DNA of 51,441 nt, from the NCBI GenBank assembly GCA_964293355.1, contig CAXZAJ010000001.1, positions 1 to 51,441 of the forward strand. Direction: 5' to 3'. The notes below the pieces were generated by a model. It had not been told where the DNA came from. It did not search any database and worked only from the letters and a program-made list of their open reading frames with translations. The translations under genes and the position numbers were made by a program. This document shows, piece after piece, positions 1 to 29,063 of this stretch; the first letter of the stretch is position 1, and every line of letters begins with the position of its first letter. The stretch comes from an uncultured bacterium. Lineage in GTDB: Bacteria; Spirochaetota; Spirochaetia; Treponematales; UBA12059.

Positions 1-1
1 G

Positions 2-850
2 GCAGCCATGAATATGGCCATCCGCGGTATCGATTTCAACTTTGGCGGTGAGCCGGCCAATACCTTTACCCGTGATCTGCACCCCGGCCTGAGGGCTGGC
101 TTCGTCATGGCCAATCCGCCCTTCAACCAGGATGAATGGTGGGACGAAAAACTGGCCAATGATCGCCGTTGGACAGGCTTTCCAACGCCCCCCCGGCGCA
201 ATGCCAACTTTGCCTGGATGCTCCACATGCTCAGTCACCTGAATGACTCAGGCTCCATGGGCCTCTTGCTGGCCAACGGCTCCATGAGTTCAGCCACCAA
301 TGGTGAAGACGAGATTCGGCGCAAACTACTGGAACAGGACTTGGTGGAGTGCATGATAGCCCTGCCCGGACAGCTTTTTACCAATACCCAAATTCCTGCC
401 TGTATCTGGTTCCTCACCAAGAACAAAAAGGCACGCACTACATCTGCCGGCACTTACCGTGACCGCCGTGGCGAAGTGCTCTTTATCGATGCCCGCAACC
501 TTGGCCGCATGGTTTCCCGTGTTCAGCGCATTTTTGATGATGCCGACATCCAGAACATCAGCGCCACCGTGGATGCCTGGAAAGCAGGTAACAGCTACGA
601 AGACAAGCCCGGTTTTTGCAAGTCTGCCGCCATGGCCGATCTTGCAAAGAACGACTACGTCCTGACTCCCGGCCGCTATGTCGGCGCGGCTGATGTTGCA
701 GAGGACACCGAGCCCTTCGTCGAGAAAATGGCGCGCCTCACCACCCAGTTGGGCAAGCAGATTGCCGAAGGTGCCCGTCTGGAAGCGGAGATTCGCACGC
801 AACTGGCCAGCATCGGCTTTGAGGTGCCGGTTCCGGACTCGCGTACATGA
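2..850 (+). CDS. hsdM: Type I restriction-modification DNA methyltransferase subunit HsdM, C-terminal part (5' end off the window)
   Basis: The reading frame is open from the left edge. It contains the N6-adenine methyltransferase motif IV NPPFN (ANPPFNQDEWW) and an HsdM-like C-terminal region. hsdS and hsdR lie on the same strand downstream. Confidence 0.9.
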   Translation, partial: AAMNMAIRGIDFNFGGEPANTFTRDLHPGLRAGFVMANPPFNQDEWWDEKLANDRRWTGFPTPPRRNANFAWMLHMLSHLNDSGSMGLLLANGSMSSATNGEDEIRRKLLEQDLVECMIALPGQLFTNTQIPACIWFLTKNKKARTTSAGTYRDRRGEVLFIDARNLGRMVSRVQRIFDDADIQNISATVDAWKAGNSYEDKPGFCKSAAMADLAKNDYVLTPGRYVGAADVAEDTEPFVEKMARLTTQLGKQIAEGARLEAEIRTQLASIGFEVPVPDSRT

Positions 851-1107
851 ATAACGGTAAAGGAATTATAAAAAAAGAAACCCTGGATCCTGGCACCGCC
901 GCAGAGGACGGGAGAAGGAAAATCAGGGCTAACAGTAAGCATAGTCGCATGCCATGGAAAAATATTCAAGATAATGGGGCTAAGTTTTATGTTCATAGGA
1001 CCCGCAACGGGACAGCTTCGGCTACCGCACCAGTGCGGGTTGTTTTTATCACTAATGAACATGAATCCAAATAAGACGACGATTCAATCTCACCAGAGGA
1101 GTTTGAT

Positions 1108-2649
1108 ATGTTTCAGCGTAATCTAAGCCAGATTTGGGAACAGCTTCGGGGTAAAAGCCCTCAGTTTAAACATTTTTTGCAATCAGTGCGCATTGAGAAC
1201 CACAGGGGTATACGTGATTTATCAATCCAGTTTAAATTCCCCGTTACAGTAATCGCTGGGCCTAATGGATGTGGAAAAAGTACTGTTCTGTATTCCTGTG
1301 CTTGCGCTTACCGGGTAGAAGGGGCAGGCTTACGTGACTTTTTTCCATCAGCCATTTTCCCCAACCTTACCATCGATGACAATCTTCAGGATAAACCCAC
1401 TTCCAGCAACATTGATTATACCTATCTTCACGAAAACAAATTTTTCAACATGCGCTGGTCACGAAAAAAGAGCTGGGATAAAAGCTTTTTTGGCCGGAAA
1501 CAAGCCGTACAGCCCGAACGCGCCCTATATCTACGAACGCTCGCCAACCTGACCAGCCCCAGTGAGGTTCGCGGTGTTCTTACCATTGCCAAAAAAGATT
1601 TTACTACGGAGGACGTAACGGTTGATCAAATCGCCTTCGCCCAACGCATCCTTGGCTATAACTATTCGGCAATCAAGGCAATCAAATCCGGCAGCAAAGA
1701 CTTGCTGTTTGCTGCCCGGGACAACGGAGCCATGCAGTATTCGGAATTTCACATGTCTGCAGGCGAAAGGGCCCTTCTTCGTTTATCTCGTGAAATATCC
1801 AGCCTGCAAAATGCGCTGGTGCTGATTGATGAAATTGAGGCTGGTTTGCATCCATATACCCAACAGCAAATAATGCTGGAACTGCAACGTCTGGCTCTGC
1901 GTAACAACCTGCAGATCATAGTTACTACCCATAGCCCGGTAATATTAGAATGTGTACCCATCGAAGGGAAAGTGTTTCTGGAACGTACCGAGGACAACGT
2001 TATCCAAAAATCTGCCTATCGCACTATTATACAAAAAGCTTACTATGGCCAAACCCTTGATCGACTTTCCATTCTTTGCGAAGATGAGGTTGGCGAAGCC
2101 TTTGTTCGGGGTGTACTTGATTGCCTGAACCCAAAGCTGGAACTGATACAGGAAGATATCGAAGTCGGTCGTGATACAGGAAAAAACGAGTTTCCTGGTC
2201 ACATCAGGGCTCTACATAAATTCAGTAAACTTTCGGACTTCCTGTTTGTGCTGGATGGCGATGCCCGTAGCATGGAAACAGAAATCAAGGCTGCAGCGCC
2301 GGGTGAACAAGTCAGGCCAATCTTCCTGCCCGGAGACAGTATCCCCGAAGCATGGTGCTGGAAGATCCTGGAAACTGACACAGATACCTATGCACAAAAA
2401 CTAGGCATAGCCGTCGTAGAACTCAAACAGCGCATGGCCCGTTTGTCGAGTCTGTATCAAGCCGCAGCCGACAAGCAGACTCAAAAAGATAAACAGCAAT
2501 TTTTTGACCTTGCCACCAGCTTGGGGCGTACCACCACCGACCTTGTACGTTTGGTCAGCCGTCAGGAAACCGAACAGGGCACTGGGGATATTGTGCTTTT
2601 GGTGCAAGACCTTGAAAACCAGATCCGCGACTGGCTGGCCAGAAAATAA
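1108..2649 (+). CDS. ABC/OLD-like ATPase with C-terminal Toprim/DUF4435-like region (RloA-RloB / OLD-family-like fusion), 513 aa
   Basis: ATPase motifs: Walker A GPNGCGKST, signature-like SAGERAL, Walker B VLIDEIEAGLHP, H-loop TTHSP. The C-terminal ~170 aa shows the acidic pattern LCEDEVGE ... FVLDGDAR (E...DxD), as in Toprim-type nucleases. An AGAGGAG RBS lies upstream of the ATG. Confidence 0.75.
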   Translation: MFQRNLSQIWEQLRGKSPQFKHFLQSVRIENHRGIRDLSIQFKFPVTVIAGPNGCGKSTVLYSCACAYRVEGAGLRDFFPSAIFPNLTIDDNLQDKPTSSNIDYTYLHENKFFNMRWSRKKSWDKSFFGRKQAVQPERALYLRTLANLTSPSEVRGVLTIAKKDFTTEDVTVDQIAFAQRILGYNYSAIKAIKSGSKDLLFAARDNGAMQYSEFHMSAGERALLRLSREISSLQNALVLIDEIEAGLHPYTQQQIMLELQRLALRNNLQIIVTTHSPVILECVPIEGKVFLERTEDNVIQKSAYRTIIQKAYYGQTLDRLSILCEDEVGEAFVRGVLDCLNPKLELIQEDIEVGRDTGKNEFPGHIRALHKFSKLSDFLFVLDGDARSMETEIKAAAPGEQVRPIFLPGDSIPEAWCWKILETDTDTYAQKLGIAVVELKQRMARLSSLYQAAADKQTQKDKQQFFDLATSLGRTTTDLVRLVSRQETEQGTGDIVLLVQDLENQIRDWLARK

Positions 2650-2653
2650 TCCT

Positions 2654-2911
2654 ATGACCCCACCATCAGTCGACCAAGCCCTTACCGTCCAAGCCCTCAT
2701 CGACCAACTCAAGCATTACGATCCAACTCTGCCCATAGTGGTTCAGAGTTACGAAGACGGTTACGACCCGCTCACGCACTTGCGCGTTCTTACAATCGAG
2801 CCCACAACACCGCACCCCGCCTGGTACAACGGCATCTATCAGGAAAAACCTCAGGCCAGCCAATCCGCGCTCTTGCTCTACTCAATCCTGAGCCGTGAGG
2901 AAAAGCCATGA
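2654..2911 (+). CDS. small hypothetical protein (85 aa), no recognisable family
   Basis: The ATG lies 5 nt after the ATPase stop. Its stop overlaps the hsdS start (ATGA at 2908-2911). The longer ORF-track version from 2504 overlaps the ATPase gene and is unlikely. No obvious RBS. Confidence 0.4.
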   Translation: MTPPSVDQALTVQALIDQLKHYDPTLPIVVQSYEDGYDPLTHLRVLTIEPTTPHPAWYNGIYQEKPQASQSALLLYSILSREEKP

Positions 2912-4284
2912 TACAAAAAGACAAAAAGGGAGGAGTCTCCCCCCTTGCTCCCCCGGTCCTGCGAATCTCGGACCGGGCCTCGGTTCCTGCGTCGACTGCG
3001 GGGTCTTCCGCTACCCCCCTAGGTGTGTTGCCGGCGGGATGGAGATTTTTACCGATTGATCTAGTCACAAACAATCATGACTCAAAACGCCGTCCGGTTA
3101 AAGGATCAGAAAGAAAATCAGGGCCTTATCCCTATTATGGTGCATCTGGAATTGTAGATTGGGTTGATGACTATATTTTTGATGGCGAATATCTACTTGT
3201 TGCTGAAGATGGTGAAAACTTAAAGACCACACAAACACCAATTGCTTTTCTTTCCATGGGTAAGTCATGGGTAAATAATCATGCACATATTATCACAGGA
3301 AATGAAAAGGCACTTACTAAGTATTTACTGTACGCATTACAGAATATGGATATCAAGCCATATTTAACAGGGGCTGTAATGCCCAAGTTAACTCAGGCAA
3401 ATTTAAACAGTATTCAAATATTATTGCCACCACTTCTACAACAACAAAAAATCGCCGCCATCCTCTCAGCCCTCGACGACAAGATCGCCCTCAATCGTGC
3501 CACCAACCAGACGCTCGAACAGATTGCCCAGGCTCTCTTCAAAAGCTGGTTTGTCGACTTTGACCCCGTCCACGCCAAAGCCCGGGGCGAACAACCCGTC
3601 GGTATGGATGCCGCCACCGCCGCCCTCTTCCCCGACAGTTTTGAAGAATCGGAGCTGGGGATGATTCCGAAGGGGTGGGAAGTGAAGAAGTTGTCGGAAT
3701 TGATACAAATCACTGGTGGAGGTACACCCAAACGGTCAGAAGAATCATATTGGAATGGCAATATCCCCTGGTACTCCGTAAAGGACGCACCTAATGAAAG
3801 CGATGTATTTGTCATCGACACTGACGAACATATCTCTGAAATAGGACTTAAGGAGTCTTCAACTCGACTGCTCTCGGTTGGTACAACTATTATTTCTGCA
3901 CGTGGGACTGTTGGAAAGTTGGCTTTAGTTGCCACCCCCATGTGTATGAACCAATCATGTTATGGAATACTTGGAAATAATGGAAGCAGCAACTGTTATA
4001 ATTATTTTAATCTTAAATTCGCACTTTCTATGTTACAAGAAAAGGTTCATGGTGCTGTATTTGATACAATAACAACAGCAACGTTTGAAACGTGCTTTGT
4101 TGTCTTTCCTGGAATCAAGTATACCGCTCAATACGAGTCGGCCATTCAATCGGCAATGAAGCAGATTGAGACCAATGTACGACAAAATACTGTTCTAAAC
4201 AATATCCGCGACTCCCTGCTTCCCAAGCTCCTGTCCGGGGAAATATCGGTGGCTGATGTTGCCTATCAGGGTTCAAAAAAATGA
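2908..4284 (+). CDS. hsdS: Type I restriction-modification specificity subunit HsdS (two target-recognition domains)
   Basis: Two TRD-like halves (LPAGWRF..., IPKGWEV...). Central conserved spacer LLPPLLQQQKIAAILSALDDKIALN...FKSWFVDFDP and C-terminal LLPKLLSGEISV. The true start may be GTG 3025 or TTG 3028 rather than ATG 2908 (see finding). Confidence 0.9.
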   Translation: MIQKDKKGGVSPLAPPVLRISDRASVPASTAGSSATPLGVLPAGWRFLPIDLVTNNHDSKRRPVKGSERKSGPYPYYGASGIVDWVDDYIFDGEYLLVAEDGENLKTTQTPIAFLSMGKSWVNNHAHIITGNEKALTKYLLYALQNMDIKPYLTGAVMPKLTQANLNSIQILLPPLLQQQKIAAILSALDDKIALNRATNQTLEQIAQALFKSWFVDFDPVHAKARGEQPVGMDAATAALFPDSFEESELGMIPKGWEVKKLSELIQITGGGTPKRSEESYWNGNIPWYSVKDAPNESDVFVIDTDEHISEIGLKESSTRLLSVGTTIISARGTVGKLALVATPMCMNQSCYGILGNNGSSNCYNYFNLKFALSMLQEKVHGAVFDTITTATFETCFVVFPGIKYTAQYESAIQSAMKQIETNVRQNTVLNNIRDSLLPKLLSGEISVADVAYQGSKK

Positions 4285-7200
4285 ATCTCAATTTTTGGGA
4301 AGCCTATCAGCTGGATTTCCGGAGTGCCGATGGTATTCCTTCTATTTTATGCGAAGGGCCAGAGCAATTCTCAGAAATAATTAATTTGCTGGGCAAAATC
4401 CCTGAATCAAAATTTGTTTTTCGCGGACAAAGAAGGGCGGACTGGAAACTTACACCGGGTCTGGCCCGTTTCTCACCTGAGCGAATTGTCAAGGAAGATC
4501 ATGCAAAGGAGCAAATTGACCTATTTCGCAAGTCGGTTCGGGGATTTAAAATGGATCGCTCTCTACTAGAGGGCAATGATAGTCGTGCAGAGAAGGAACT
4601 TTGGTCAACTGGTCAACATTGTGGCCTGCACACACCATTATTGGACTGGACCAGTGCCCCATTCATTGCACTATTTTTTGCTTTTGAGCAAAAAGACTGT
4701 GCTCACAAACAAAAAAATCCATTCCGCTGTGTTTTCGCTCTAAATAAACTCAAAGTAGAATCGCTTTGGGTAGCAAACGCCGACGATTCAATTCGTTTTA
4801 TTGAACCAATTGAAGATGAGCAGGGCCGCCTAGTTGCTCAGGAGGGGCTGTTTACTATATCGCCCTACGGAAAAAACTTTGAAGAAACCCTTCTAAATGG
4901 GTTGGCATCCAAACTTGTTCAAGGCGAAGTCATTTCTGATCCGAACGTTGTAGCGCCATATCTGCTAAGGATTTTGATTGTAAATCGAAACCAGCCAGAG
5001 ATTATTAAATTTCTACGGGATATGAGTATTAATTATGCCAAAATGTACCCCGGCTTAATTGGAGCTTCTCAGGACTGCAACTCGATATTTGAAACAAAAT
5101 ATGTAAACCAGGTAACTGCCCTTGATTCGATAGAGGAAACTCTCCAGACCATCAATCCACCAGCTCTCGCTCGCTTCCCTCAAGAACTAATACCAAGCCT
5201 TACACAAACTATTCAACTATACTGGAACCATCATGCATCCGCGAGTAGCCTTGCTGTGGCCAATTTAATTGGTGCTTGGGACGAAAACAACGCGGTCGAT
5301 ATCGCCGCCATTACTGAGTTATCCGGAAAAACTTACGATACCTTGGTGTATGAATATCGCGAGATTTTGGAGCATCCCGAATCGCCCCTTAGCTTTGTGT
5401 CTGGACATTGGCAGGTCAAGGATAGAATAGATTTGTTGGAATCTTTAAAATCCCGCCTGTTTGAAAAAGACCTTACTATTCTGATGAAAATTGCCCTCAA
5501 GGTATTTACGGAGATTGACCCAGCGTTTGAACTTGAGCCCGAGCAACGGTTTGCGGCCAGTATTTATGGAAAAAAAACCTTATATTCAAATATCCTAAGA
5601 AAAGGATTGGCCGAAGGTCTGGCTATGCTTGGAAGCACGAAATTGGATTTCCCTCGTTGCTCACAATCAAGTATCCATTCAGCGGTTAAAACTTCAATTT
5701 GCGAGATTCTAGACTCTACCGATTGGCAATTGTGGGGTAGTCTCAACAGTCTTTTGCCTACTCTGGCCGAGGCAGCCCCGGAAGTTTTTCTTAACCAAAT
5801 TGAACATGCCTTGCATGTTTCTCCCTGTCCCTTTGACCAGCTTTTTACCCAAGAGGGAATTGGCGCTTTAGGCCATAACTACCTAACCGGGTTGTGGTGG
5901 GCATTGGAAAATTTAGCATGGGACCAGACCTACCTTGTCCACGCAACACAAGTCTTGGGTGAACTGGCTGCGCATGACCCCGGCGGGAATTGGGTAAACC
6001 GTCCTATTAATTCCTTAACCACAATTTTCTTACCCTGGCGCTATCAAACCCTGGCTTCTATCGATAAACGCACGACCGCTGTCCAAACTCTCTGTGTAAA
6101 TTGGCCCAATATCGGTTGGAAACTATTGTTGAACTTGCTACCAAATCATTTCCAAACTAGTTCTGGTACTTCCAAGCCAGTTTGGCTCCTACGTATCCCA
6201 GAAGACCATGGTAAAACAATCAACAATACCGAATACTGGCAACAGATAGAAAACTATTCCAAGATAGCAATTGCCCAAGCCAAATCTGATAGTAAGAAGT
6301 TGGCAGAGCTTATTGACCATAGCACTGACCTGCCACCAGAAGTATTTCGTCAATTCGTCAAACGTCTGTCTCTCGATGACCTTAAAGAATTGCCAGACCA
6401 AGAGCGTTTGTTCATTTGGGACCATCTCCTAAAACTGACGGTTAAGCATCGGAAGTTTCCTGAAGCGAAGTGGGTTATGCCGGTTGAACGTTTAGAGGCA
6501 CTGGAGACGATTTCTGCTGGTTTGGCCCCAGTTGATCCATTTATTCTTCACCAACCCTTATTCACCGATCGAGATTTTGATTTGTACGAAGATACAGACG
6601 ACTATGCCGCGCAAGCTACTAAACTCGACCAGCGTCGCCAGGCTGCTATTCAACAGATTTTTAACACCAAGGGATTTGGAAGCGTAGTTGATTTTGCCAA
6701 CCAAGTAATTTCGCCCAGCCAAGTAGGACACGCCCTTGGAGGAATCAGCGATGAATCGATTGATCTCCAAATCTTGCCCTCATTTCTGGATGATGGTAAT
6801 GCCGTGCACATCGCCTTAGCCACAGGCTTTATTTGGAAACGACTCAACATCTATGGTTGGGAGTGGTGCGATACCTTTGCGGAGTTGAAATGGAGCACAA
6901 AACAGATTACGAAGTTCTTTTGTTTGTTGCCATTCAAAACCGAAGCCTGGTCTAGGGCCGAAAAATGGCTGGGGGCTGATCAGAGTGAATACTGGACCCA
7001 AACAAATGCTAATCCCTATCAGCACGATGGCATACCAGAGTATGCAATTGAAAAGATGCTTGAAAACGGCAGGCCTTTTGCGGCCATCAATTGCCTTGCG
7101 GTGGCCCACCAATTTAAACACACAATTTCGACTAATCAAGTCAAAAGAGCCCTGTTAGATGCATGCCAGTCCCAAGAACCTGTTGAGGCCCTGGATCGAC

Positions 7201-7916
7201 ACAACATTACTGAAACCATCAAGTACCTTCAGGACAGCCCAGATGTTACGGACGAAGAACGCATCGCTATTGAATGGGCTTTCCTGGCCATGCTCGATGA
7301 GTACAGTGGTACGCGACCCAGAACACTGGAGCGACAATTAGCCAATGATCCTAATCTCTTTTGTGAGCTTATTCGCTTGATATTTCGCTCCAAGAATTTC
7401 CAGCAGGAACAAGAGCTTCCCGATGAACAAAAGAAAAACACGGCCATAAACGCCTATCGTTTGTTGGACAACTGGAAAACGATTCCAGGAATGCAAGAAT
7501 CCGGAGTTTTTGACGCTCAGTTTTTCGAAGAGTGGTTCAACCAAATACGCAAATCTACGGCTGAGTCTGGCCATCTTGAAATTGCTTTGAGCAAGGTAGG
7601 CGTTGTTCTGGTGCATGCTCCCGCCGATCCAGAAGGATTATGGATTCACAAGGCAGTCGCCAAAGCTTTGAATGGAGTAGAGGCCGATAGTTTGAGGCAA
7701 GGATACCAAATAGGGATTATGAACAGTCGTGGTGTCCACTGGGTTGATCCATCAGGTAAGCCAGAACTTGATTTGGCAGAAGAATATGATCAAAAAGAAA
7801 AAGCAATACTTTCGCAAGGCTACCATAAGTTCGCCCAAACACTCCGGGGTATTGCGGAGAATTATAGGGAAGACGCTGACAGAATACGGCGCCAATACGA
7901 AGGTGACGACGAATAA
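4281..7916 (+). CDS. FRG-domain protein with ~950-aa C-terminal alpha-helical region of unknown function (1211 aa)
   Basis: The N-terminal ~260 aa carry the FRG-domain hallmarks FVFRGQRRADW, GQHCGLHTPLLDWTSAPFIALFFA and GRLVAQEGLFT. The rest has no motif I recognise. The start overlaps the hsdS stop (ATGA). Confidence 0.85.
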   Translation: MNLNFWEAYQLDFRSADGIPSILCEGPEQFSEIINLLGKIPESKFVFRGQRRADWKLTPGLARFSPERIVKEDHAKEQIDLFRKSVRGFKMDRSLLEGNDSRAEKELWSTGQHCGLHTPLLDWTSAPFIALFFAFEQKDCAHKQKNPFRCVFALNKLKVESLWVANADDSIRFIEPIEDEQGRLVAQEGLFTISPYGKNFEETLLNGLASKLVQGEVISDPNVVAPYLLRILIVNRNQPEIIKFLRDMSINYAKMYPGLIGASQDCNSIFETKYVNQVTALDSIEETLQTINPPALARFPQELIPSLTQTIQLYWNHHASASSLAVANLIGAWDENNAVDIAAITELSGKTYDTLVYEYREILEHPESPLSFVSGHWQVKDRIDLLESLKSRLFEKDLTILMKIALKVFTEIDPAFELEPEQRFAASIYGKKTLYSNILRKGLAEGLAMLGSTKLDFPRCSQSSIHSAVKTSICEILDSTDWQLWGSLNSLLPTLAEAAPEVFLNQIEHALHVSPCPFDQLFTQEGIGALGHNYLTGLWWALENLAWDQTYLVHATQVLGELAAHDPGGNWVNRPINSLTTIFLPWRYQTLASIDKRTTAVQTLCVNWPNIGWKLLLNLLPNHFQTSSGTSKPVWLLRIPEDHGKTINNTEYWQQIENYSKIAIAQAKSDSKKLAELIDHSTDLPPEVFRQFVKRLSLDDLKELPDQERLFIWDHLLKLTVKHRKFPEAKWVMPVERLEALETISAGLAPVDPFILHQPLFTDRDFDLYEDTDDYAAQATKLDQRRQAAIQQIFNTKGFGSVVDFANQVISPSQVGHALGGISDESIDLQILPSFLDDGNAVHIALATGFIWKRLNIYGWEWCDTFAELKWSTKQITKFFCLLPFKTEAWSRAEKWLGADQSEYWTQTNANPYQHDGIPEYAIEKMLENGRPFAAINCLAVAHQFKHTISTNQVKRALLDACQSQEPVEALDRHNITETIKYLQDSPDVTDEERIAIEWAFLAMLDEYSGTRPRTLERQLANDPNLFCELIRLIFRSKNFQQEQELPDEQKKNTAINAYRLLDNWKTIPGMQESGVFDAQFFEEWFNQIRKSTAESGHLEIALSKVGVVLVHAPADPEGLWIHKAVAKALNGVEADSLRQGYQIGIMNSRGVHWVDPSGKPELDLAEEYDQKEKAILSQGYHKFAQTLRGIAENYREDADRIRRQYEGDDE

Positions 7917-7951
7917 CCCTATCATCTGCGTATTCTTGACTGGAGCGAAAA

Positions 7952-8440
7952 ATGACTGACCAGGAACCTGAACCAATGAATCCCGACATCTCTCCCACCC
8001 ATGGCCAATTCCTTGTGTACCAGACTGAGAACGGACACATCAAGCTGGATGTCCGCTTTGAAGGCGAAACGGTTTGGCTTACCCAACCCATGCTGGCAGA
8101 ATTGTTCCAGACGACACAGCAGAATATCAGCCAACACATTCTTAATATCTATGAAGAAGAAGAACTTGCCCCGGAGGCAACTCACAAGGATTTCTTGTTG
8201 GTTCGAACTGAGGGCAATCGAAAGGTCAAGCGCCTCCTGGATTACTACAACCTCGATATGATTATTTCCGTGGGCTACCGTATCAAGAGCCATGTAGCCA
8301 CCCGCTTCCGCATCTGGGCTACTGCATGTTTACGAGAAATAAAATTATTCGATGATCAACATGCACAAAACACGTTAGAATTGGCTCATATTCCGTTTGT
8401 TTCGTATATATTGCACGATTTTGAGGTGGTATCATGCTGA
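7952..8440 (+). CDS. rhuM: RhuM-family protein, N-terminal fragment only (truncated, 162 aa)
   Basis: The N-terminal ~120 aa match the RhuM pattern (FLVYQTENGHIKLDVRFEGETVWLTQPMLAELFQTTQQNISQHI ... YNLDMIISVGYRIKSHVATRFRIWAT). From about nt 8320 the sequence becomes an unrelated AT-rich tail. Full-length family members are about twice this size. Confidence 0.65.
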   Translation: MTDQEPEPMNPDISPTHGQFLVYQTENGHIKLDVRFEGETVWLTQPMLAELFQTTQQNISQHILNIYEEEELAPEATHKDFLLVRTEGNRKVKRLLDYYNLDMIISVGYRIKSHVATRFRIWATACLREIKLFDDQHAQNTLELAHIPFVSYILHDFEVVSC

Positions 8441-9720
8441 ACTACTTGAAGCTGAAAAACATTGGACCAGCTCCGGAATTTTACATTCCGCAGTTTGGTT
8501 CAAGGTTGAATTTGATCACCGGTGACAACGGTTTAGGTAAAAGCTTTCTGCTTGACAGTGCCTGGTGGGCTTTGACCAGAAAATGGCCAGCAGAAATCAA
8601 CCCGAGCCTAGTCGGCGGAAAAAAAGCGATACCCTATGGCAAAGGCACCGCATGTATCGAGTTTTCATTCACCGCAAAGACCGGGTCTGAAGTATATACA
8701 AGTTCTTTTGACAGGGAATCACAAGCCTGGACTGGCCGTTCCGGCCGGCCAGCTAATCCGGGGCTCATTCTGTATGCCATGGCTGATGGTAGTTTTGCCT
8801 TGTGGGATCCGGCTCGCAACTATTGGAAAAAGAAAGGTAGTATCGATGTACAGGACAGACCACCTGCCTACGTTTTTACTCCGGACCAAGTTTGGAACGG
8901 CTTAGGCGGTGAAAAAGGTACAATGGTCTGCAATGGTTTGATTCAGGATTGGGCCGGCTGGCAAAAAGAGAATGGCCGCGCCTTCAAGACTTTATGTGCG
9001 GTCCTTACAACGCTCTCTGCCAATGAAAGTGAACGCTTGATTCCTGGTGAACTGACCAGAATCAGCTTGGATGATGTTCGGGATATGCCAACCTTGAGCT
9101 TGTCGTATGGTCAATCAGTTCCGGTTGTACATGCATCTGCTGGTATGCGCAGGATCATCGCTCTGGCCTACTTTATGGTTTGGGCTTGGGAGGAACACCA
9201 AAAAGCAGTCCAAATTCTGGGGACAGCTCCGATTGAGCAGATGGTCTTTCTCATTGATGAAATTGAGTCTCATCTCCACCCCAGTTGGCAAAAACGCGTC
9301 ATACCATCGCTGGTACGTGTGGTCCGCGATCTTTCAGCTACGATGAACTCCCAATTATTGCTCGTAACCCACTCCCCGTTGATCATGGCATCGGTGGAAC
9401 CGTTGTTTGACCCTACACAAGATGCATGGTTTGATATTGATCTGATTGACTCTCACGTAACCTTACAAACAAAATCATTCACCAAGCACGGAGATATCTT
9501 GAATTGGCTGACTAGTGAAGCCTTTGATCAGTTCAGTGGAAGGGCTCCGGAATATGAACAACTCGTGGATGAAGCCAGTAAACTACTGGATGCGAATCAA
9601 AATTTAGATATCTCGGCAATCAGAGAAATTCATGGACGACTCGCCAAGGCATTAAGTCCGTTGGATGTCTTCATTATCAGATGGCGTGCAGCGTGTGAAA
9701 AGAAAGGAATATTTCTTTGA
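8434..9720 (+). CDS. AAA_21/ABC-type ATPase, Septu PtuA-like (428 aa)
   Basis: Walker A GDNGLGKS, Walker B/D-loop FLIDEIESHLHP, H-loop LVTHSP. It is paired by a 4-nt overlap with a TIGR02646-like HNH protein. Confidence 0.7.
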   Translation: MLNYLKLKNIGPAPEFYIPQFGSRLNLITGDNGLGKSFLLDSAWWALTRKWPAEINPSLVGGKKAIPYGKGTACIEFSFTAKTGSEVYTSSFDRESQAWTGRSGRPANPGLILYAMADGSFALWDPARNYWKKKGSIDVQDRPPAYVFTPDQVWNGLGGEKGTMVCNGLIQDWAGWQKENGRAFKTLCAVLTTLSANESERLIPGELTRISLDDVRDMPTLSLSYGQSVPVVHASAGMRRIIALAYFMVWAWEEHQKAVQILGTAPIEQMVFLIDEIESHLHPSWQKRVIPSLVRVVRDLSATMNSQLLLVTHSPLIMASVEPLFDPTQDAWFDIDLIDSHVTLQTKSFTKHGDILNWLTSEAFDQFSGRAPEYEQLVDEASKLLDANQNLDISAIREIHGRLAKALSPLDVFIIRWRAACEKKGIFL

Positions 9721-10319
9721 TACCAGTGCAGCCGCAATCAGAGCCACCGGACTTTAACCAAAAAGTGCGTATTCCTGGTCAATCCTGGCTAAGAAACAAG
9801 GGAATTGCCCCTGGTGCACCTCCACTCAAAGCTGGAACTCTACCCGCTTACTGGTCAAAATCGCAAAAGAATCTTTGGGATGCGTACCATGGCGTTTGCT
9901 CCTACCTTTCAATGTATTTTTACTGGGAAACCGGCGCCAGCTTCACTGATCATTTCGTTCCAAAATCAAAAAATGCCTGGAAAGCTTATGAGTGGGATAA
10001 TTATCGACTTTCAGCTCTTGGTCCGAATCGTCGAAAAGGAATAAAAACTAATATCCTCGACCCGTTCGCGCTGCAGCCGGGTACATTCACAATCAATTTT
10101 GTTAGTGGTACTGTTTCTATAGCGCAGCAAGTCTCGGTCAGCATTCGTACGTTAGCGCAAGATACGATCGATGAACTTGGTTTGAATGAACCTGAAACGT
10201 GCCGTACTCGTACTGAATGTTTTGATGGATTTCTTTCGCATAACCTAAGTTCAGATTACCTTTCGAGAAAATTTCCCTTTGTGCATGCGGAGCTGGTACG
10301 ACAAGGTTACGTATCATGA
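9717..10319 (+). CDS. TIGR02646/PtuB-like HNH-family protein (200 aa; TTG start at 9717 or GTG at 9726)
   Basis: The core GVCSYLS...FTDHFVPKS...YEWDNYRLSALGPNRRKG fits the His-Me finger layout (DHF His, downstream Asn, RKG) of the small nuclease partner of PtuA-type ATPases. It overlaps the ATPase stop, and its own stop overlaps the hsdR start. Confidence 0.55.
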   Translation: MIPVQPQSEPPDFNQKVRIPGQSWLRNKGIAPGAPPLKAGTLPAYWSKSQKNLWDAYHGVCSYLSMYFYWETGASFTDHFVPKSKNAWKAYEWDNYRLSALGPNRRKGIKTNILDPFALQPGTFTINFVSGTVSIAQQVSVSIRTLAQDTIDELGLNEPETCRTRTECFDGFLSHNLSSDYLSRKFPFVHAELVRQGYVS

Positions 10320-13300
10320 CAGAAGACCAGCTTGAAAAAATTACTATAGATTGGTTCCGCGCCCAAGGTTATGACTACGCCTACGGCCCCGACATAGGCC
10401 ATGACGGCGACAGTCCGGAACGGCCCGATTATGCCAGCGTCATTCTACCCAAGCGCCTGGCAAGTTCCCTGTCATCGCTCAACCCTGCAATTCCTGCATC
10501 CGTCATTGATGAAGTCGTTTCTCTCCTGCAGAAGCCAAAACATCTGACGTTGCTTGCCAATAACCGTCAGTTTCATGAATGGCTTCTGGATGGCGTTCCT
10601 GTTGAAGTTGAAAAGAATGGGCGCAAAATCGGAGACCGGGTCAAGCTGATCGATTTTGCCGCCCCCGATAAGAATCACTTTTTGGTAGTGAATCAATTTA
10701 CCGTTTTTGGTACCAAACAGCCCCGCAGGCCTGATATTGTGGTCTTCATCAATGGCATGCCCATTGCCGTCATCGAACTCAAAAACCCTGCTGACGAACA
10801 AGCAGACATCTGGTCAGCTTTTCATCAACTGCAAACCTATAAACAAGAGATATCCGACCTCTTCATCTTCAACGAAACCTTGGTCATTTCTGACGGCATC
10901 AATGCCAGGCTTGGCTCCCTTACAGCCGATCAGGAACGCTTCATGCGCTGGCGCACACTGAAGAACGAAAATGAAAAACCCTTATTGCAGTTCGAGCTGG
11001 AAACTTTAATAAAAGGATTCTTTGACAGAGAACTGCTCCTGGACTACCTACGCTACTTCATACTCTTTGAAAACATGGGGGATACCCCCGTCAAGAAGAT
11101 TGCTGGTTACCACCAGTTCCATGCGGTACGTGAAGCCGTCAGGGCAACGATTATCGCCTCCCACCATGATCCTGATGATGTGGCTGAACCGCCAAACGAC
11201 TGGGGTGAGAAAGTTACTCCCGGATGTAAAAAGGGAGGAGTGGTTTGGCACACCCAGGGATCCGGTAAGAGCATCTCAATGGCCTGCTTCGCCGGAAAGC
11301 TCCTGCAACAGCCGGAAATGAAAAACCCGACCCTGCTGATCGTTACCGATCGCAATGATCTGGATGGCCAGTTGTTCGAGACGTTTTGCATGGCGCACAT
11401 GCTCTTGAAGCAAACGCCTGTACAGGTTGAAAACGTTGATGAACTTCGCGATTTGCTGTCTGCCCGGCCCTCGGGAGGGATCTTCTTTACAACTATCCAG
11501 AAATTCCAGATCAAGGATGGTGAAGACCGGTTCCCCGTCTTGAATGACAGGCACAACCTGGTGGTTATTGCCGATGAAGCCCATCGCAGCCACTACGGCG
11601 ACAAGGCAACCCTTAACAAGAAGACCGGTGCGTATACCTACGGGTTCTCCAAGAACATGAGGGATGCCCTGCCCAATGCCACCTTCGTGGGCTTTACCGG
11701 TACACCAATCGCCCAGGAAGACAAGGACACGGTCGCGGTTTTTGGCGAGTACGTCAGTATCTATGATATTCAGGACGCCGTGCTCGACGGTGCCACTGTT
11801 CCCATCTACTACGAAAGCCGTTTAGCCAAGCTTGACCTGAATGAAGCGGAGATTCCGGTTATCGATGATGATATCGATGAGATCATTGAAGACGACGAGG
11901 ACACTCAGACAAGAGAGCAGACCAAGAGTAAATGGGCCGCGTTGGAGAAGCTCGTAGGTGCCCAACCTCGACTTGAGCAAGTAGCCAAAGACTTGATCGA
12001 TCATTTTGAAGCGCGCACTTCAGCTGTCGAAGGCAAGGCTATGATCGTATGCATGAGCCGTGAAATCTGCGCCAACCTCTATAGCGCGTTGGTTGTTCTT
12101 CGCCCGGAATGGCATTCTGCAGATCCTTTACAGGGAACAATTAAAGTCATAATGACTGGGTCTGCGTCAGACAGGGAAACGCTACAACCACATATTTACA
12201 ATGGACGCACCAAAAAGCAATTAGAAAAGCGCTTCAAGAATCCCGGTGATTCGCTTAAACTGGTCATCGTCAGGGATATGTGGCTCACTGGCTTTGATGC
12301 GCCATCCTGCCACACCATGTACATCGACAAACCCATGAAGGGTCACAATCTCATGCAGGCCATTGCCCGGGTAAACCGCGTATTCAAGGGCAAAGAAGGC
12401 GGCTTGGTAGTCGATTACATTGGTATTGCCAATGAGCTCCGCCATGCCCTCGTGACCTATACCCAGGCAAAGGGTAAAGGCTCCCCAACCCTCGACACCA
12501 ATGATGCCTATAACAAATTGCTTGAATTCCTGGATGTTGTCCGAGGCTTGTTCCACGGCTTCGACTATAGAAACTACAAAAAATCACCCATTCCTCTACT
12601 GGTTCCGGCCGCGAATCACATTCTTGGCTTGGATGATGGCAAAAAAAGGTTTTACGATGTGGTACTCGCTTTAAGCAAAGCCCACTCACTATGTTCCACT
12701 CTGGACGCTGTTAAAGCATACCAGGAAGAAATAGCATTTTTTCAGGCAGTCAAGTCAGTAATCGCCAAGGCTTCCGGCTCGGATCTAAAACTGACTGAAG
12801 ACCAGAAAAACAGCGCCCTCAAACAGATTCTTGATAATGCAGTAGTTGCCCAAGGAATTGACAATATCTTTGCCCTTGCCGGTCTTGAACGACCGGATAT
12901 TTCAATTCTCTCTGACGAGTTCTTGGCTGAAGTAGCGAATATGCCTGCACGCAATCTAGCCGTAGAGTTACTGCAAAAGCTGTTGCATGACGAAATAAAG
13001 TCTAAAACCCGCAACAATATAGTGCAGGAAAAAAAATATAGTGATCGCTTGCTTGATACCCTCAAAAAGTATCGCAATCGTTCTATAGAAAGCTCTCAAG
13101 TAATAGAAGCATTAATCGCCCTTGCAAAGGAATTCAGGGACACCGTTAACCGCGGAATTGATTTAGGTTTAAATTCCGATGAAGTTGCCTTTTATGATGC
13201 CCTTGCAGAAAACGAAAGTGCAGTCCGGGAATTGGGTGATGAAATCCTTAAAAAAATCGCACAGGAAATCACTGAAAAGCTTAGAAAAAGTACCAGCGTT

Positions 13301-13459
13301 GATTGGCAGAAACGTGAGAGCATCCGTGCAAAATTACGAAACCTTGTACGCATAACGCTTCGCAAGTACAAATACCCTCCGGATAAAACCGAAGAGGCTA
13401 TAGAACTTGTACTCAAACAAGCTGAAGTTCTATCAAATGAGTGGACTAAAGATCTATGA
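10316..13459 (+). CDS. hsdR: Type I restriction enzyme R subunit HsdR (1047 aa)
   Basis: Typical HsdR N-terminus (EDQLEKITIDWFRAQGY), helicase motif I HTQGSGKS, motif II VIADEAHRSH, and a long C-terminal helical domain. Confidence 0.93.
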   Translation: MTEDQLEKITIDWFRAQGYDYAYGPDIGHDGDSPERPDYASVILPKRLASSLSSLNPAIPASVIDEVVSLLQKPKHLTLLANNRQFHEWLLDGVPVEVEKNGRKIGDRVKLIDFAAPDKNHFLVVNQFTVFGTKQPRRPDIVVFINGMPIAVIELKNPADEQADIWSAFHQLQTYKQEISDLFIFNETLVISDGINARLGSLTADQERFMRWRTLKNENEKPLLQFELETLIKGFFDRELLLDYLRYFILFENMGDTPVKKIAGYHQFHAVREAVRATIIASHHDPDDVAEPPNDWGEKVTPGCKKGGVVWHTQGSGKSISMACFAGKLLQQPEMKNPTLLIVTDRNDLDGQLFETFCMAHMLLKQTPVQVENVDELRDLLSARPSGGIFFTTIQKFQIKDGEDRFPVLNDRHNLVVIADEAHRSHYGDKATLNKKTGAYTYGFSKNMRDALPNATFVGFTGTPIAQEDKDTVAVFGEYVSIYDIQDAVLDGATVPIYYESRLAKLDLNEAEIPVIDDDIDEIIEDDEDTQTREQTKSKWAALEKLVGAQPRLEQVAKDLIDHFEARTSAVEGKAMIVCMSREICANLYSALVVLRPEWHSADPLQGTIKVIMTGSASDRETLQPHIYNGRTKKQLEKRFKNPGDSLKLVIVRDMWLTGFDAPSCHTMYIDKPMKGHNLMQAIARVNRVFKGKEGGLVVDYIGIANELRHALVTYTQAKGKGSPTLDTNDAYNKLLEFLDVVRGLFHGFDYRNYKKSPIPLLVPAANHILGLDDGKKRFYDVVLALSKAHSLCSTLDAVKAYQEEIAFFQAVKSVIAKASGSDLKLTEDQKNSALKQILDNAVVAQGIDNIFALAGLERPDISILSDEFLAEVANMPARNLAVELLQKLLHDEIKSKTRNNIVQEKKYSDRLLDTLKKYRNRSIESSQVIEALIALAKEFRDTVNRGIDLGLNSDEVAFYDALAENESAVRELGDEILKKIAQEITEKLRKSTSVDWQKRESIRAKLRNLVRITLRKYKYPPDKTEEAIELVLKQAEVLSNEWTKDL

Positions 13460-13478
13460 ATACCTGCCAACGGCATAA

Positions 13479-14138
13479 ATGGAACCCATGACGCCCCAAA
13501 ACCCCATTCGCGCCCTCCTCGTCACCCCCACATCCCTCACCCTCGTCACCTACCTTCCCGGCAAGCCCGACGCCCCTGCTGACGACTCCGGCACCGTGCA
13601 ACTCCTCACCTGGTCAGAAGCCCCGGACGGCCGCGCCCTGCCGCGCTGCACTGAAACGATCTCCAGGAAGGCCATTGCCGAGCGAAACCCAGCCTTCAAC
13701 GAAGCTCTGTCCCCGTACCGGTTCGGGCTCCAGCAGTACGACCCGTTCCAGTCGTTGGCGGTCTCGCTTGACCGGGCCGCGGAACAGGGCGCGGGTCTGT
13801 CGCTGGCACTCTGGGCCGCGCTGGAGGCGGACCTGTTCCGCTTTGCCTTTGACCAAAGCTTTACCGCTGCGCTCGACGAGGCCCGCGGTACTGACGAGTG
13901 GCTCCGTTTTGCCCGGCTCAACGGCTTGTACCGGGCCTGCATTATGGCGCTGGCACCCCTGGGCATCGTGCCGCCGGCCTGGAACGCCTGGCTCCGTGAT
14001 GACGGCAAGGCCCGTTTTCCTCCGCGCGGCATGAGCAACGTGCTGGAACGGGCCCTGACGCGGCGCATCGGCACAATCTCAGGCGCGATCACAGGCTTTT
14101 TCTCGGGTTCCATCAAAGGCCAGTTCTCGGCTCCGTAA
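13479..14138 (+). CDS. hypothetical protein (219 aa), high-GC
   Basis: Strong G/C preference at third codon positions in this frame. The competing 350-aa antisense ORF also overlaps the next gene and looks like a shadow ORF. No family recognised. Confidence 0.5.
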   Translation: MEPMTPQNPIRALLVTPTSLTLVTYLPGKPDAPADDSGTVQLLTWSEAPDGRALPRCTETISRKAIAERNPAFNEALSPYRFGLQQYDPFQSLAVSLDRAAEQGAGLSLALWAALEADLFRFAFDQSFTAALDEARGTDEWLRFARLNGLYRACIMALAPLGIVPPAWNAWLRDDGKARFPPRGMSNVLERALTRRIGTISGAITGFFSGSIKGQFSAP

Positions 14139-18068: not shown

Positions 18069-18656
18069 ATGCGTACGGATGGAACATCAGCGCTGAAGCC
18101 TGACGGCCGATACACGGTGGCGGACTACAAATCCTGGAACGACGATGTGCGGCGCGAGCTGATTGGCGGCGTCATCTACGATATGAGCCCGGCTCCGCGC
18201 ACGGGACATCAGGATCTGGCTGGAGACGTGTTTGCCACGATCAAATACTACCTTGCGGACAAACCCTGCGTGCCGTTCATTGCGCCCATCGATGTTTACC
18301 TGTTTCCGGATGAAGATGACGAGGACTCGGATGACGTGGCGCAACCGGACGTGCTGGTGGTGTGCGACCGGAGCAAGATCCATGACGACGGCATCCACGG
18401 CGCGCCGGACCTGGTCATCGAAGTGCTGTCGCCTTCTACCGCGCACAAGGACCTGGGCGACAAGCGCGACCTCTACGAGCGCGCCGCCGTCAAGGAATAC
18501 TGGCTCCTCAACCCCGATACCGGCGCCGCCCTCGTGTGGCACCTGGACGGCTCGCGCTTTGCGCCGGTCGCGGAATACCTTGAAGGCAGCGAGATACATT
18601 CCAGCGCCATCGCGGGCTTTACATGGAAGACGGTCCGCGCCACAAAATACAGCTAG
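18069..18656 (+). CDS. Uma2-family (DUF820) endonuclease
   Basis: PD-(D/E)xK-like core APDLVIEVLSPSTAHKDLGDKRDLYERAAVKEYWLLNP, typical of the Uma2 family. Confidence 0.8.
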   Translation: MRTDGTSALKPDGRYTVADYKSWNDDVRRELIGGVIYDMSPAPRTGHQDLAGDVFATIKYYLADKPCVPFIAPIDVYLFPDEDDEDSDDVAQPDVLVVCDRSKIHDDGIHGAPDLVIEVLSPSTAHKDLGDKRDLYERAAVKEYWLLNPDTGAALVWHLDGSRFAPVAEYLEGSEIHSSAIAGFTWKTVRATKYS

Positions 18657-23363: not shown

Positions 23364-23401
23364 TTCCTTGACGCGCGGCGCTCATGGTCTATTCTTTAAC
23401 C

Positions 23402-25060
23402 ATGAAATCAATCCGGACTAAAATTGTCGTACTCTCGGCCGCGGCAGCGCTTATCGTTGCGCTCAGTCTCTCAATATTCTTCATCTCCATATTGAGAACG
23501 TCAATCGACGGGCAGGTCCAGGCGCTCGAGACAACATTGCGGGATGATTTTGACCTGCTCATCAAGAGCGAGATCGAAACGGTGGTCTCGATGCTTGAGC
23601 GTATCGCCAAGCTCAGGGACTCAGGCGCACTCGCCGACTCAGCGGCCCGATCATTCGCGGCCACGCTGCTACGCGATATCAGGTACGGCAACGACAGCTA
23701 TTTCTGGGCTGATACACCCAAGGGCGACAACATAGTCCTCCTGGGGGGAGCCTCCGAGGGAACCAACCGCCTGGGCCTCAAGGACGTCAACGGCTTTGAA
23801 CTCGTGCGGGCCATCATAGACGCCGGCATGAGCGGCGGCGGCTATACCGACTACTGGTTCCCCCGGGCCGGCGAAACCGAGGCGTTGCCCAAGCGCGGGT
23901 ACAGCAAGTATTCACCCGGTTTCGACTGGGTCGTCGGAACGGGAAACTACACCGACGATATCGACAAGGTCATCGCGGAGAAGCGATCCGCCGCCGAGGC
24001 CGTGTTGAGCCGGGCCCTGGTGATGATAGCCGTCATAGCGTCGGTGCTGTCCGCCGCGATGGTTGCCGTGGCGGTGCTCATGGGAGACCGCATAGCCAAA
24101 CCGCTCGTCTATGCGGCGGCGAGGGTCCGGGATCTGGCCGCCGGCCGGCTCGACGAGGCATTTGACCACAGGATGGCCTCCGGCAAGGATGAGGCCGGGG
24201 TGCTCGTCTCGTCCCTGTCCGCTACGGTGGCAAAACTGCGCGAGGTCATTGAAAATGTGCAGGACGCCAGCTCCGTCATGATCTCCGGTTCTGCGGCTCT
24301 TTCCGAAGCTTCAGTCCAGATGGCTACCGGCATAGACGGCATAGCCGAATCCAGCCAGCAATTGTCCCAGGGCGCTTCGGAGCAGGCCGCCAGCGCGGAA
24401 CAAGTATCTGCAAGCGTTGAACAGATGGGCGCGAACATCAGACAGAACGCGGACAACTCGTTCCAGACCGAGAAAACTTCCTCAAAGGCGGCCAACGATG
24501 CCAAGGAAGGCCTGTCAGCTGTACGGGCGACGGTTGCAGCCATGCGCCAGATCGCTGAAAAAATAGATATTATAGAAGAGATAGCGCGGCAGACGAACAT
24601 GCTGTCGCTCAACGCCAGCATAGAAGCGGCCAGGGCCGGCGAGCATGGCAAGGGCTTCGCGGTGGTAGCCAGCGAGGTCGGCAAACTGGCTGAGCGCTCG
24701 AAGGTGGCAGCGGGCGAGATATCGGTGCTGTCGCAGCAGAGCGTCGACATAGCCGACAGGGCGGGAACCTTGCTGGAAGGCATGGTGCCGGACATCCAGA
24801 AGACTGCCGACCTGGTGCAGGAGATCAGCGTCGCGAGCCGCGAGCAGGATAGCGGTACGCAGCAGATCAGCCAGGCCATGACCCAGCTGGATTCGGTCAT
24901 CCAGCAGAATGCCTCCATCTCGGAGGAATTCAGCGCTACCAGCGAGGAAATCGCGGGCCAGGCGCGCATGGTCGCCGACACGTCGGCGGAACTGTACGCC
25001 CAGGCTGAACGGCTCCAGGGGCTCGTGTCATTTTTCAGGCTTTCGGATTTTGAGGATTAG
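23402..25060 (+). CDS. methyl-accepting chemotaxis protein 1 (single Cache_2-type sensor, HAMP, MA domain)
   Basis: Cache-like [13 protein letters not shown]...[13 protein letters not shown]...WVVGTGNY. Signalling hairpin [35 protein letters not shown]. Start chosen by alignment with the paralog start MKSIRMKIV. Confidence 0.9.
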
Positions 25061-25087
25061 TCTATCGAGAACATCTGGAGGCTCGAC

Positions 25088-26761: not shown

Positions 26762-26768
26762 CGGGCAT

Positions 26769-26796
26769 GATGTTTGGCTTGCGAGAGCCAAACATC
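26769..26796 (+). terminator. hairpin after MCP2 (terminator-like, weak U-tract)
   Basis: GATGTTTGGCT-tgcgag-AGCCAAACATC, a perfect 11-bp stem, at the start of a 140-nt lower-GC gap. Confidence 0.4.
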
Positions 26797-29034: not shown

Positions 29035-29063
29035 TGCGCTATGATTGATAAGAGGAGCTTGCC

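Follow-up and report, generated by a model that had tools for sequence, protein, structure and literature searches.

Defence genes lodged between the hsd genes of Type I restriction-modification (R-M) loci have been described before. Payne, Hughes, Fineran & Jackson (2024) reported such embedding in Type I R-M, BREX, DISARM and Hma loci and, for Type I R-M, found a co-orientation of 96.7% and discussed genomic-sink, co-transfer and co-regulation arguments together with the idea of a PrrC-type backup (bioRxiv 10.1101/2024.01.29.577857). In the prr locus of Escherichia coli (hsdM-hsdS-prrC-hsdR), hsdS and hsdR are separated by the gene for an ABC-ATPase-based effector that targets tRNA. Experimentally active modules also lie between the hsd genes of the Vibrio cholerae VPI-2 Type I R-M cluster (TgvAB; PMC11411939) and of a Type I R-M island of enteropathogenic E. 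coli (EPEC) (DarTG2; PMC12255303); in the DarTG2 study, the stretch between hsdS and hsdR is regarded as a potential hotspot of recombination. Here we describe a Type I R-M locus with embedded cargo at positions 1 to 13459 of a contig from an uncultured bacterium of the Treponematales (GTDB UBA12059; assembly GCA_964293355.1, contig CAXZAJ010000001.1). The contig is 51,441 bp long and was analyzed whole; we refer to it as the window.

Like the embedded systems of Payne et al., the locus has known or candidate defence genes between its hsd genes and in the same orientation. HEC-04, PDC-S05 (RhuM) and PDC-S15 (FRG) are named in that study, Septu is its lead embedded example, and all four are PADLOC entries. 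The window differs in that both the hsdM-hsdS and the hsdS-hsdR slots are filled, with three intact modules and a remnant, and in that one module is a fusion outside the catalogue. TgvAB and DarTG2 are each a single module of a family other than those found here, and the EPEC island has a dedicated upstream regulator, RptR, whereas the 5' end of the window's operon lies off the contig. Judged by its position between genes, its co-orientation and its families, which are also found elsewhere, the cargo is classed as embedded defence systems. The arrangement is thus a heavily loaded example of a documented pattern and adds little by itself; a sequence-only reading of this DNA had implied that it was novel, which the three studies cited above contradict.

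The explanation that we favor, with a probability of roughly three in four, is that this is a horizontally acquired Type I R-M operon with a HindI-type HsdR, whose hsdM-hsdS and hsdS-hsdR junctions are exchange slots for independent anti-phage passengers. The hsd genes would supply classical modification-dependent restriction. The first slot would add an HEC-04/IbfA-type ABC-ATPase-TOPRIM nuclease with a small conserved partner open reading frame (ORF), and the second would add an FRG protein (a predicted NAD-consuming or ADP-ribosylating effector) fused to a helical solenoid, a RhuM stump and a PtuA-PtuB pair. The intact modules (HEC-04, the FRG giant and Septu) would act on their own triggers as separate defence layers, and would gain shared transcription and co-transfer with the hsd genes from their position. 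We document below the gene content, gene order, junctions, intact motifs and variability of the cargo among relatives, and infer the co-transcription, the autonomy of the modules in this host and the order of events. The FRG-solenoid fusion also points to a very large uncharacterised family in defence and mobile-element contexts, which is a reasonable candidate for functional screening.

Positions 1 to 13459 hold ten ORFs, all on the plus strand, with a largest intergenic gap of 35 nt (from the ORF listing and direct reading). The features are as follows.

2 to 850, plus strand: hsdM, 3' part of 282 codons, the 5' part being lost at the contig end.
847 to 1074, plus strand: orf75, a chimeric ORF across an insertion junction, probably no gene.
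1108 to 2649, plus strand: gene for an HEC-04/IbfA-type ABC ATPase-TOPRIM protein of 513 amino acids (aa) (PADLOC HEC-04).
2654 to 2911, plus strand: orf85, 85 aa, its stop codon overlapping the hsdS start (ATGA).
2908 to 4284, plus strand: hsdS (Methylase_S, Specificity_I).
4281 to 7916, plus strand: gene for the FRG giant, 1211 aa, with an ATGA overlap with hsdS.
4281 to 5102, plus strand: FRG domain of the giant, residues 1 to 274, assigned to the R-M-embedded PDC-S15 clade.
5103 to 7916, plus strand: linker of the giant (to about residue 311) and its all-alpha, HEAT/ARM-like solenoid of about 900 aa (AlphaFold2).
7952 to 8440, plus strand: rhuM (PDC-S05) remnant, a 162-aa ORF whose homologous part is nt 7988 to 8347.
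8434 to 9720, plus strand: ptuA, Septu ABC ATPase (PADLOC PDLC00307).
9717 to 10319, plus strand: ptuB, Septu HNH nuclease, with a TTG start (PADLOC PDLC00348).
10316 to 13459, plus strand: hsdR, HindI-type restriction subunit (Pfam and PADLOC REase_I).
13460 to 13480, no strand: right-hand edge of the low-GC island, marked by a shift in GC content at third codon positions (GC3).

All three subunits of a Type I R-M system were recognized in profile searches, and the system is predicted to be active. The truncated HsdM matches Pfam N6_Mtase (E = 3.5e-64) and PADLOC MTase_I (E = 3e-91) and has the catalytic NPPF motif, at residue 38 as counted in the truncated sequence. HsdS matches Pfam Methylase_S in two stretches (E = 2.2e-41), which correspond to two target-recognition domains, and PADLOC Specificity_I over residues 43 to 451 (E = 2.3e-120). 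In HsdR we found Pfam HSDR_N (E = 7.7e-51), SWI2_SNF2 (E = 1.7e-75), T1R_D3-like and T1RH-like_C (E = 7.8e-123) domains, a PADLOC REase_I match with E = 0, and a DEAH motif at residue 420. The spacing between hsdM and hsdS is 2,057 bp and that between hsdS and hsdR is 6,031 bp. The sequence-only reading had described hsdM, hsdS and hsdR as lying on one strand but split by defence-type cargo, and this is borne out, with the cargo in two slots; the identities that it gave to the modules also all proved right in the Pfam and PADLOC searches, with motifs intact.

The hsd block has a GC content of 43 to 52% and a GC3 of 0.37 to 0.67, compared to 60 to 68% and 0.78 to 0.86 in the flank. GC3 rises from 0.37 to 0.53 in the last genes of the block to 0.78 to 0.86 in the next three genes, and the switch falls at most 20 nt past the hsdR stop codon. 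Because the low GC and GC3 give way to those of the flank within 20 nt after hsdR, base composition identifies the block as a horizontally acquired foreign island that abuts the core chromosome. The contig stops short of the left end of the island and lacks the 5' half of hsdM, as well as any promoter or regulator that precedes it.

By direct reading, ATGA stop/start overlaps are found at 847, 2908, 4281 and 10316, a TTGA overlap at 9717 and a 7-nt overlap at 8434, so that all of the overlaps quoted in the sequence-only reading are present. A scan of the locus for promoters and terminators gave nothing above the shuffled expectation. We considered a hairpin with a T-run at 1025 to 1047 as a terminator between hsdM and HEC-04; it is conserved with a related locus (L166, described below), yet its predicted folding is no better than that of shuffled sequences (z = -0.01). 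Since stop/start overlaps are common in operons and the promoter and terminator scan was null, co-transcription of the hsd genes and the cargo is no more than plausible.

To place this arrangement among its relatives, we fetched 80 loci encoding HsdR proteins 60 to 75% identical to that of the window; we could locate all three hsd genes in 61 of these. The hsdS-hsdR gap is at least 660 bp and holds cargo in 58 of the 61 loci, with a median gap of 1.5 kb, and cargo lies between hsdM and hsdS in 18 of the 61. The embedded ORFs are mostly co-oriented (116 of 135). An occupied hsdS-hsdR junction is therefore the rule in this HsdR lineage and a bare hsdMSR locus is exceptional, so that new cargo can conveniently be sought in this lineage. 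The recurrent cargo families are Schlafen/AlbA_2-HATPase_c_4-winged helix-turn-helix proteins (22 loci), SIR2 (11 loci), short FRG/PDC-S15 proteins (7 loci, in the hsdS-hsdR slot), RhuM-type proteins (PDC-S05/S23; 4 loci, of which the only member scanned, from L040, is a RhuM-Fic protein), SoFic (3 loci), DUF4917/PDC-S21 (3 loci), Kiwa (2 loci) and HipA (2 loci), with dozens of singletons. At 6.0 kb, the window's hsdS-hsdR gap ranks second largest among the 62 compared. Stacking recurs, with several loci loaded as heavily as the window, and L079 likewise has cargo in both slots. The most stacked locus of the set, in a gammaproteobacterial metagenome-assembled genome (L051, 2101 to 10568), has SIR2-HerA, a type II-A retron (NDT and reverse transcriptase), AbiEi/AbiEii and a short RhuM-like ORF in 8.4 kb.

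The junction between the last cargo gene and hsdR overlaps or abuts in about 21 of 55 loci, regardless of cargo family. Since such junctions arise with cargo of any family, the overlaps are a property of the slot and not of the window's cargo, and the proposal that they mark a special coupling of this cargo is not upheld.

Septu, HEC-04 and the solenoid were found in none of the 61 hsdR-family loci. We also examined the neighborhoods of 80 Septu loci encoding PtuA relatives at 54 to 63% identity. In 4 of these, Septu adjoins a distant Type I hsdR, and in 1 (L132) an HEC-04 homologue lies immediately upstream; 1 other (L155) has a solenoid homologue 4 kb away, and the remaining loci are without the window's genes. 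A conserved combination of modules was therefore rejected, with 0 of 61 hsdR loci carrying one and the Septu loci offering a single case each with HEC-04 (L132) and with the solenoid (L155). The metagenomic locus L132 (13 to 8318) encodes a partial ATPase, an HNH protein, an HEC-04 homologue (53% identical), a PtuA split in two ORFs, PtuB, HsdR (4-nt overlap) and a YgjP-like peptidase, and it is the sole other place where HEC-04 neighbors a Septu of the window's type.

The closest relative by its hsd genes, L168, was located from the neighborhood of the top-ranking FRG homologue (P0280). Its HsdR and HsdM are 89% and 91% identical in aa sequence to those of the window. Its gene order is hsdM, an HEC-04-like gene (75% identical), a gene for a 140-aa NTase_sub_bind protein, hsdS, a short FRG gene, two unknown ORFs, HEC-02A, HEC-02B and hsdR, so that HEC-02AB occupies the place of Septu in the window. 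A second relative, L166, is a 21-kb contig (assembly GCA_974337735.1) whose hsdM has 82% nucleotide identity to that of the window and which contains HEC-04 and orf85, a truncated hsdS, HEC-02AB and a DUF262-like gene. Within the lineage of the window, L166 and L168, comparison of the gene orders indicates that the skeleton and the positions of HEC-04 and FRG persist while the pair before hsdR is swapped, being either HEC-02AB or Septu. The locus probably grew stepwise from a simpler hsdM-(HEC-04)-hsdS-FRG-...-hsdR ancestor. In L168 (3459 to 5542), hsdS has an N-terminal nucleotidyltransferase (NTP_transf_2/Polbeta) domain and, with the 140-aa NTase_sub_bind protein gene before it, resembles an MNT/HEPN-type pair merged with hsdS.

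In the first slot, the ATPase-TOPRIM protein matches PADLOC HEC-04 over profile positions 18 to 463 of 494 (E = 1.4e-50). It has Walker A (residues 51 to 58) and Walker B (237 to 244) motifs, an acidic CEDEVGE motif (324 to 330) and DGD at 383 to 385; these acidic and Walker residues match the published K62, E319, D375 and D377 by position, not by structural alignment. With an ABC ATPase that has a Walker A motif, which HEC-04/IbfA requires for defence, and a TOPRIM acidic metal site, the protein is assigned to HEC-04/IbfA, an OLD-like, IbfA-like ATPase-nuclease. HEC-04 alone was active against T4 and T5 in the study of Payne et al. (bioRxiv 10.1101/2024.01.29.577857). Window positions 1005 to 2921 are 92% identical to L166, and between the two the HEC-04 gene has a ratio of nonsynonymous to synonymous divergence (dN/dS) of 0.06. 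Its synonymous divergence (dS) is 0.28, compared to 1.31 for the adjacent hsdM, and the HEC-04 cassette and its host hsdM therefore have different histories.

The small ORF that follows, orf85, is listed as 135 aa from a TTG at 2504, which would overlap the ATPase gene; an ATG at 2654 is the likelier start. L166 has an 85-aa ORF in the same place (11547 to 11804) with 86% aa identity, and between the window and L166 the dN/dS of orf85 is 0.26 in its own frame and 0.75 and 2.85 in the other two. Family searches, Pfam and PADLOC among them, gave no match, and the ORF is absent downstream of the HEC-04 homologues in L132 and L168. From its conservation, orf85 is probably a genuine gene and moves together with HEC-04. 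Its GC3 (0.64) is like that of hsdM, and we asked whether orf85 could be a part of hsdM that had been displaced; neither tblastx nor self-blastn shows any similarity. On the other side of HEC-04, window positions 819 to 1004 (186 bp) are missing from L166, which aligns on either side. Because orf75 spans this 186-bp indel and has neither a family match nor a homologue, it is probably not a gene.

In the second slot, the RhuM ORF matches PADLOC PDC-S05 (E = 1e-48), and the match stops at about profile position 121 of 342. A tblastn search with full-length RhuM recovered only residues 2 to 124 of about 340, with homology stopping at nt ~8347, and found the rest of RhuM nowhere in the island. Beyond that point the ORF runs through unrelated sequence into ptuA. 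Compared to a full-length RhuM of about 330 to 340 aa, the ORF is classed as a remnant of a family, PDC-S05, that has since been shown to be protective (PMC12881386). Because the homology stops upstream and the ORF reads on into ptuA, the 7-nt overlap at 8434 is an accident of truncation; it had been listed among the overlaps that stitch the cargo to the hsd genes, and the overlap itself is there, but as a by-product. The truncation is most simply explained by a Septu cassette landing in rhuM, an insertion that would have destroyed the gene.

PtuA matches PDLC00307 from residue 1 to 425 on profile positions 1 to 421 of 424 (E = 4.1e-173) and has a Walker A motif, GDNGLGKS, at 30 to 37. PtuB matches PDLC00348 over its full length (E = 1.9e-60) and has DH at 78 to 79, N95 and N104; its homologues align from residue 1 and start 3 to 9 nt after ptuA. 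The pair is accordingly classed as Septu, with predicted activity. Septu consists of a PtuB nuclease gated by PtuA and reported to cut tRNA-Tyr, and anti-phage activity or tRNA cleavage is known for other Septu systems (PMC13096335, PMC11555353).

Between hsdS and the RhuM stump lies the FRG giant. Only its residues 8 to 286 match PADLOC PDC-S15 (PDLC04934; E = 9.4e-79, stopping at profile position 302 of 416), and there is also a match to Pfam FRG (E = 1.1e-20). Homologues of the whole giant span only the C-terminal ~75% of the query. When residues 1 to 290 were used as the query, all 28 homologues were 254 to 467 aa long, most of them about 400 aa, and 17 of these 28 closest FRG homologues have PF08867 together with PF11867 (T1RH-like_C), which is the R-M-embedded PDC-S15 architecture. 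The FRG domain of the giant is 36 to 55% identical to PDC-S15 proteins (55% to P0280) and keeps all 21 invariant columns, with divergence setting in after residue ~274. Like the short FRG gene of L168, which overlaps hsdS by exactly the same ATGA, the giant's gene directly follows hsdS. It differs from PDC-S15 (FRG plus T1RH-like_C, ~400 aa) in that the HsdR-C-like tail is swapped for the solenoid and the protein has tripled in size. The view that a 1211-aa FRG protein coupled to hsdS is undescribed thus holds for the unusual size, whereas the FRG-hsdS overlap is the normal PDC-S15 context.

The tail that the giant has lost is informative about its short relatives. Short FRG proteins encoded after hsdS (L016, 7153 to 8445; L168, 5539 to 6732; P0280 to P0299) end in a T1RH-like_C domain that is like the HsdR C terminus. 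This PDC-S15 tail corresponds by homology to the final ~130 residues of HsdR, with PDLC04934 matching window HsdR at 907 to 1037, and within the window the tail of P0280 matches only hsdR, so that the giant lacks it. We place the giant's FRG domain in the R-M-embedded clade by homology, with the ~900-aa HEAT-like solenoid as a replacement for the usual tail; a solenoid gene would have recombined onto a resident FRG gene and replaced its HsdR-like end. In the short proteins, the T1RH-like_C tail may be a docking handle on the methyltransferase core, and this copy of the HsdR C terminus makes such docking a testable hypothesis. Iyer et al. (2022, PMC9503650) placed FRG in the ADP-ribosyltransferase (ART) superfamily and proposed that it acts as an antiviral effector of the NADase type. 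The AlphaFold2 model of the domain has a pLDDT of 81, and its best Foldseek match to the PDB has E = 0.49, with weak matches to the ART toxin TreTu and to Tpt1 among the noise; since this search was not significant, we take the ART assignment from the literature only.

These findings bear on whether any module is wired to the R-M complex. The sequence-only reading had offered, beside independent passengers, the idea of backup effectors, for which the prr locus is the model: HsdMSR would hold one or more of the embedded modules inactive until a phage anti-restriction protein disables the complex and so sets free a second line of defence. PrrC, an anticodon nuclease in the same hsdS-hsdR position, works in this way, and anti-restriction proteins, Ocr and Stp among them, set off several ABC-ATPase defences (Payne et al., bioRxiv 10.1101/2024.01.29.577857). 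PtuAB resembles PrrC in coupling an ABC ATPase to a tRNA-cutting nuclease, the giant's FRG clade normally ends in the plausible docking handle, and HEC-04 is kept in the first slot of the three closest loci. We nevertheless consider such wiring unlikely here. HEC-04 and Septu protect when cloned alone, according to the literature, most cargo homologues lie outside R-M loci, and cargo is freely exchanged between closely related loci, with HEC-02AB replacing Septu in L168. The giant is without the HsdR-like tail, which is the sole sequence feature that suggests contact, and the sequence of the window does not suggest that R-M guards PtuAB or HEC-04. No PrrC model was among the PADLOC matches listed for the cargo proteins (for three of the proteins, the best 25 of more than 100 matching families).

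Independent passengers, which the sequence-only reading had also named, fit the comparative data on related loci better. Apart from the solenoid, the modules are full-length and strong matches to defence families already catalogued. HEC-04, PtuA, PtuB, HsdR and HsdM retain intact motifs for nucleotide binding and catalysis, and most occurrences of the cargo families are outside R-M loci. The comparison of homologous hsd neighborhoods that had been suggested as a check shows cargo families that differ from locus to locus, with HEC-04 constant in the three closest. Several observations weigh against the passenger explanation. The tight or overlapping junctions over 13.4 kb and the recurrence of FRG right after hsdS could mean more than hitch-hiking, and the HsdR C-terminus-like domain of the short FRG proteins hints at contact with the R-M complex. 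HEC-04 occupies the hsdM-hsdS slot in the window, L166 and L168 alike, which is less variable than a passenger model predicts, and the metagenomic L132 also has HEC-04 beside PtuAB and hsdR.

The C-terminal part of the giant led us to a much larger family. Residues ~312 to 1211 are modeled by AlphaFold2 as an all-helical solenoid with a pLDDT of 85.9, the first ~42 modeled residues being disordered. The best Foldseek matches were CAND1, Pds5 and exportins, with E of about 1e-4 and TM scores of 0.1 to 0.3; these are generic HEAT/ARM matches, and no specific structural relative can be named. The solenoid had no match in Pfam, NCBIfam, PADLOC or PDB sequences and none in the phage collection. Sequence searches nonetheless gathered a family (P0002 to P0269 among its members) of 5,477 representative clusters at E <= 1e-3 and 2,714 at E <= 1e-30, with clusters drawn at 50% identity. 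Neither the FRG-solenoid protein nor the family to which its C-terminal module belongs is in current catalogues.

In its relatives, the solenoid usually follows a variable N-terminal region of 240 to 520 aa. In the majority this region is a domain without assignment; others have SIR2 (P0110), Schlafen/AlbA_2 (P0120) or, as annotated on Rhizobium plasmids, a helix-turn-helix (HTH) domain. By eye, the majority domain looked like a PD-(D/E)xK/Cap4-like nuclease, but one member matched Cap4_nuclease with E = 0.11 and a PDB profile search was empty, and we did not retain this assignment. The homologues whose context we examined are stand-alone genes on an integrative and conjugative element (ICE), in defence islands and on plasmids. 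A Pectobacterium homologue is on an ICE and adjoins CcdAB and ArdC, a Vibrio homologue lies beside GmrSD and a SIR2 protein, a Brocadia homologue is in a toxin-antitoxin-rich island, and a Shewanella homologue follows Abi and Sie genes on a conjugative plasmid. In Vibrio parahaemolyticus (L082, 3970 to 11552), genes for a SIR2 protein of 1269 aa and a solenoid-family protein of 1183 aa stand in tandem, next to genes for GmrSD_N/DUF262-type and ABC ATPase proteins.

The fusion of FRG to the solenoid was found only in the window element and in a metagenomic contig, L167, which is 99.8% identical to window positions 5966 to 9020 and has the same arrangement of giant, stump and ptuA, including the 162-aa rhuM-stump ORF, in a second sample. 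This narrow distribution, a neighboring rhuM that is demonstrably a remnant, and a fusion point within a predicted disordered linker would also fit a second slot that is a junkyard, in which the FRG-solenoid ORF is a non-functional chimera of illegitimate recombination and only hsd, and perhaps Septu and HEC-04, are active. We regard this as highly improbable. The giant is encoded by 1211 uninterrupted codons, 21 of 21 invariant FRG-domain columns are kept, and the confidently modeled solenoid (pLDDT 85.9) retains the invariant positions of its family. In addition, the fusion point is at the boundary where other members of the family have N-terminal domains of their own, which is what a functional exchange of domains would be expected to give.

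The giant is reminiscent of DSR2, in which SIR2 and MID are followed by an alpha-solenoid/HEAT C terminus (PMC11850899, PMC11263360). Both have an N-terminal NAD-directed effector followed by long helical repeats, and the solenoid-family member P0110 likewise carries SIR2. The giant differs in that its effector is FRG and not SIR2, and the resemblance is architectural only: the giant matched neither of the PADLOC Dsr1/Dsr2 models and has no SIR2 domain, and no DSR2 structure was among the 50 Foldseek matches listed. The C-terminal domain of DSR2 binds a phage tail-tube protein (PMC11850899, PMC11263360). By analogy, and judged from its architecture only, the giant's solenoid might bind a phage component and so release FRG activity. 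We tentatively suggest, as a possibility that we rate below even odds, that the solenoid provides the half that senses or acts as a scaffold in a large, unrecognised family of single-protein immune factors with interchangeable N termini (maybe a nuclease-like majority, SIR2, Schlafen/AlbA_2, HTH and FRG). The window would then represent a rewiring, in which FRG was cut loose from R-M docking and put under an independent sensor while being kept in the operon.

The genes downstream of the island code for MlaE/F/D-like transporter proteins, a TPR protein, Uma2, an amino-acid kinase and a cyclophilin. The gene for the Uma2-family putative restriction endonuclease (18069 to 18656) stands amid housekeeping genes, 4.6 kb downstream of the island. 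Farther along, positions 23384 to 37907 of the window hold a series of large co-oriented ORFs of 536 to 758 aa.

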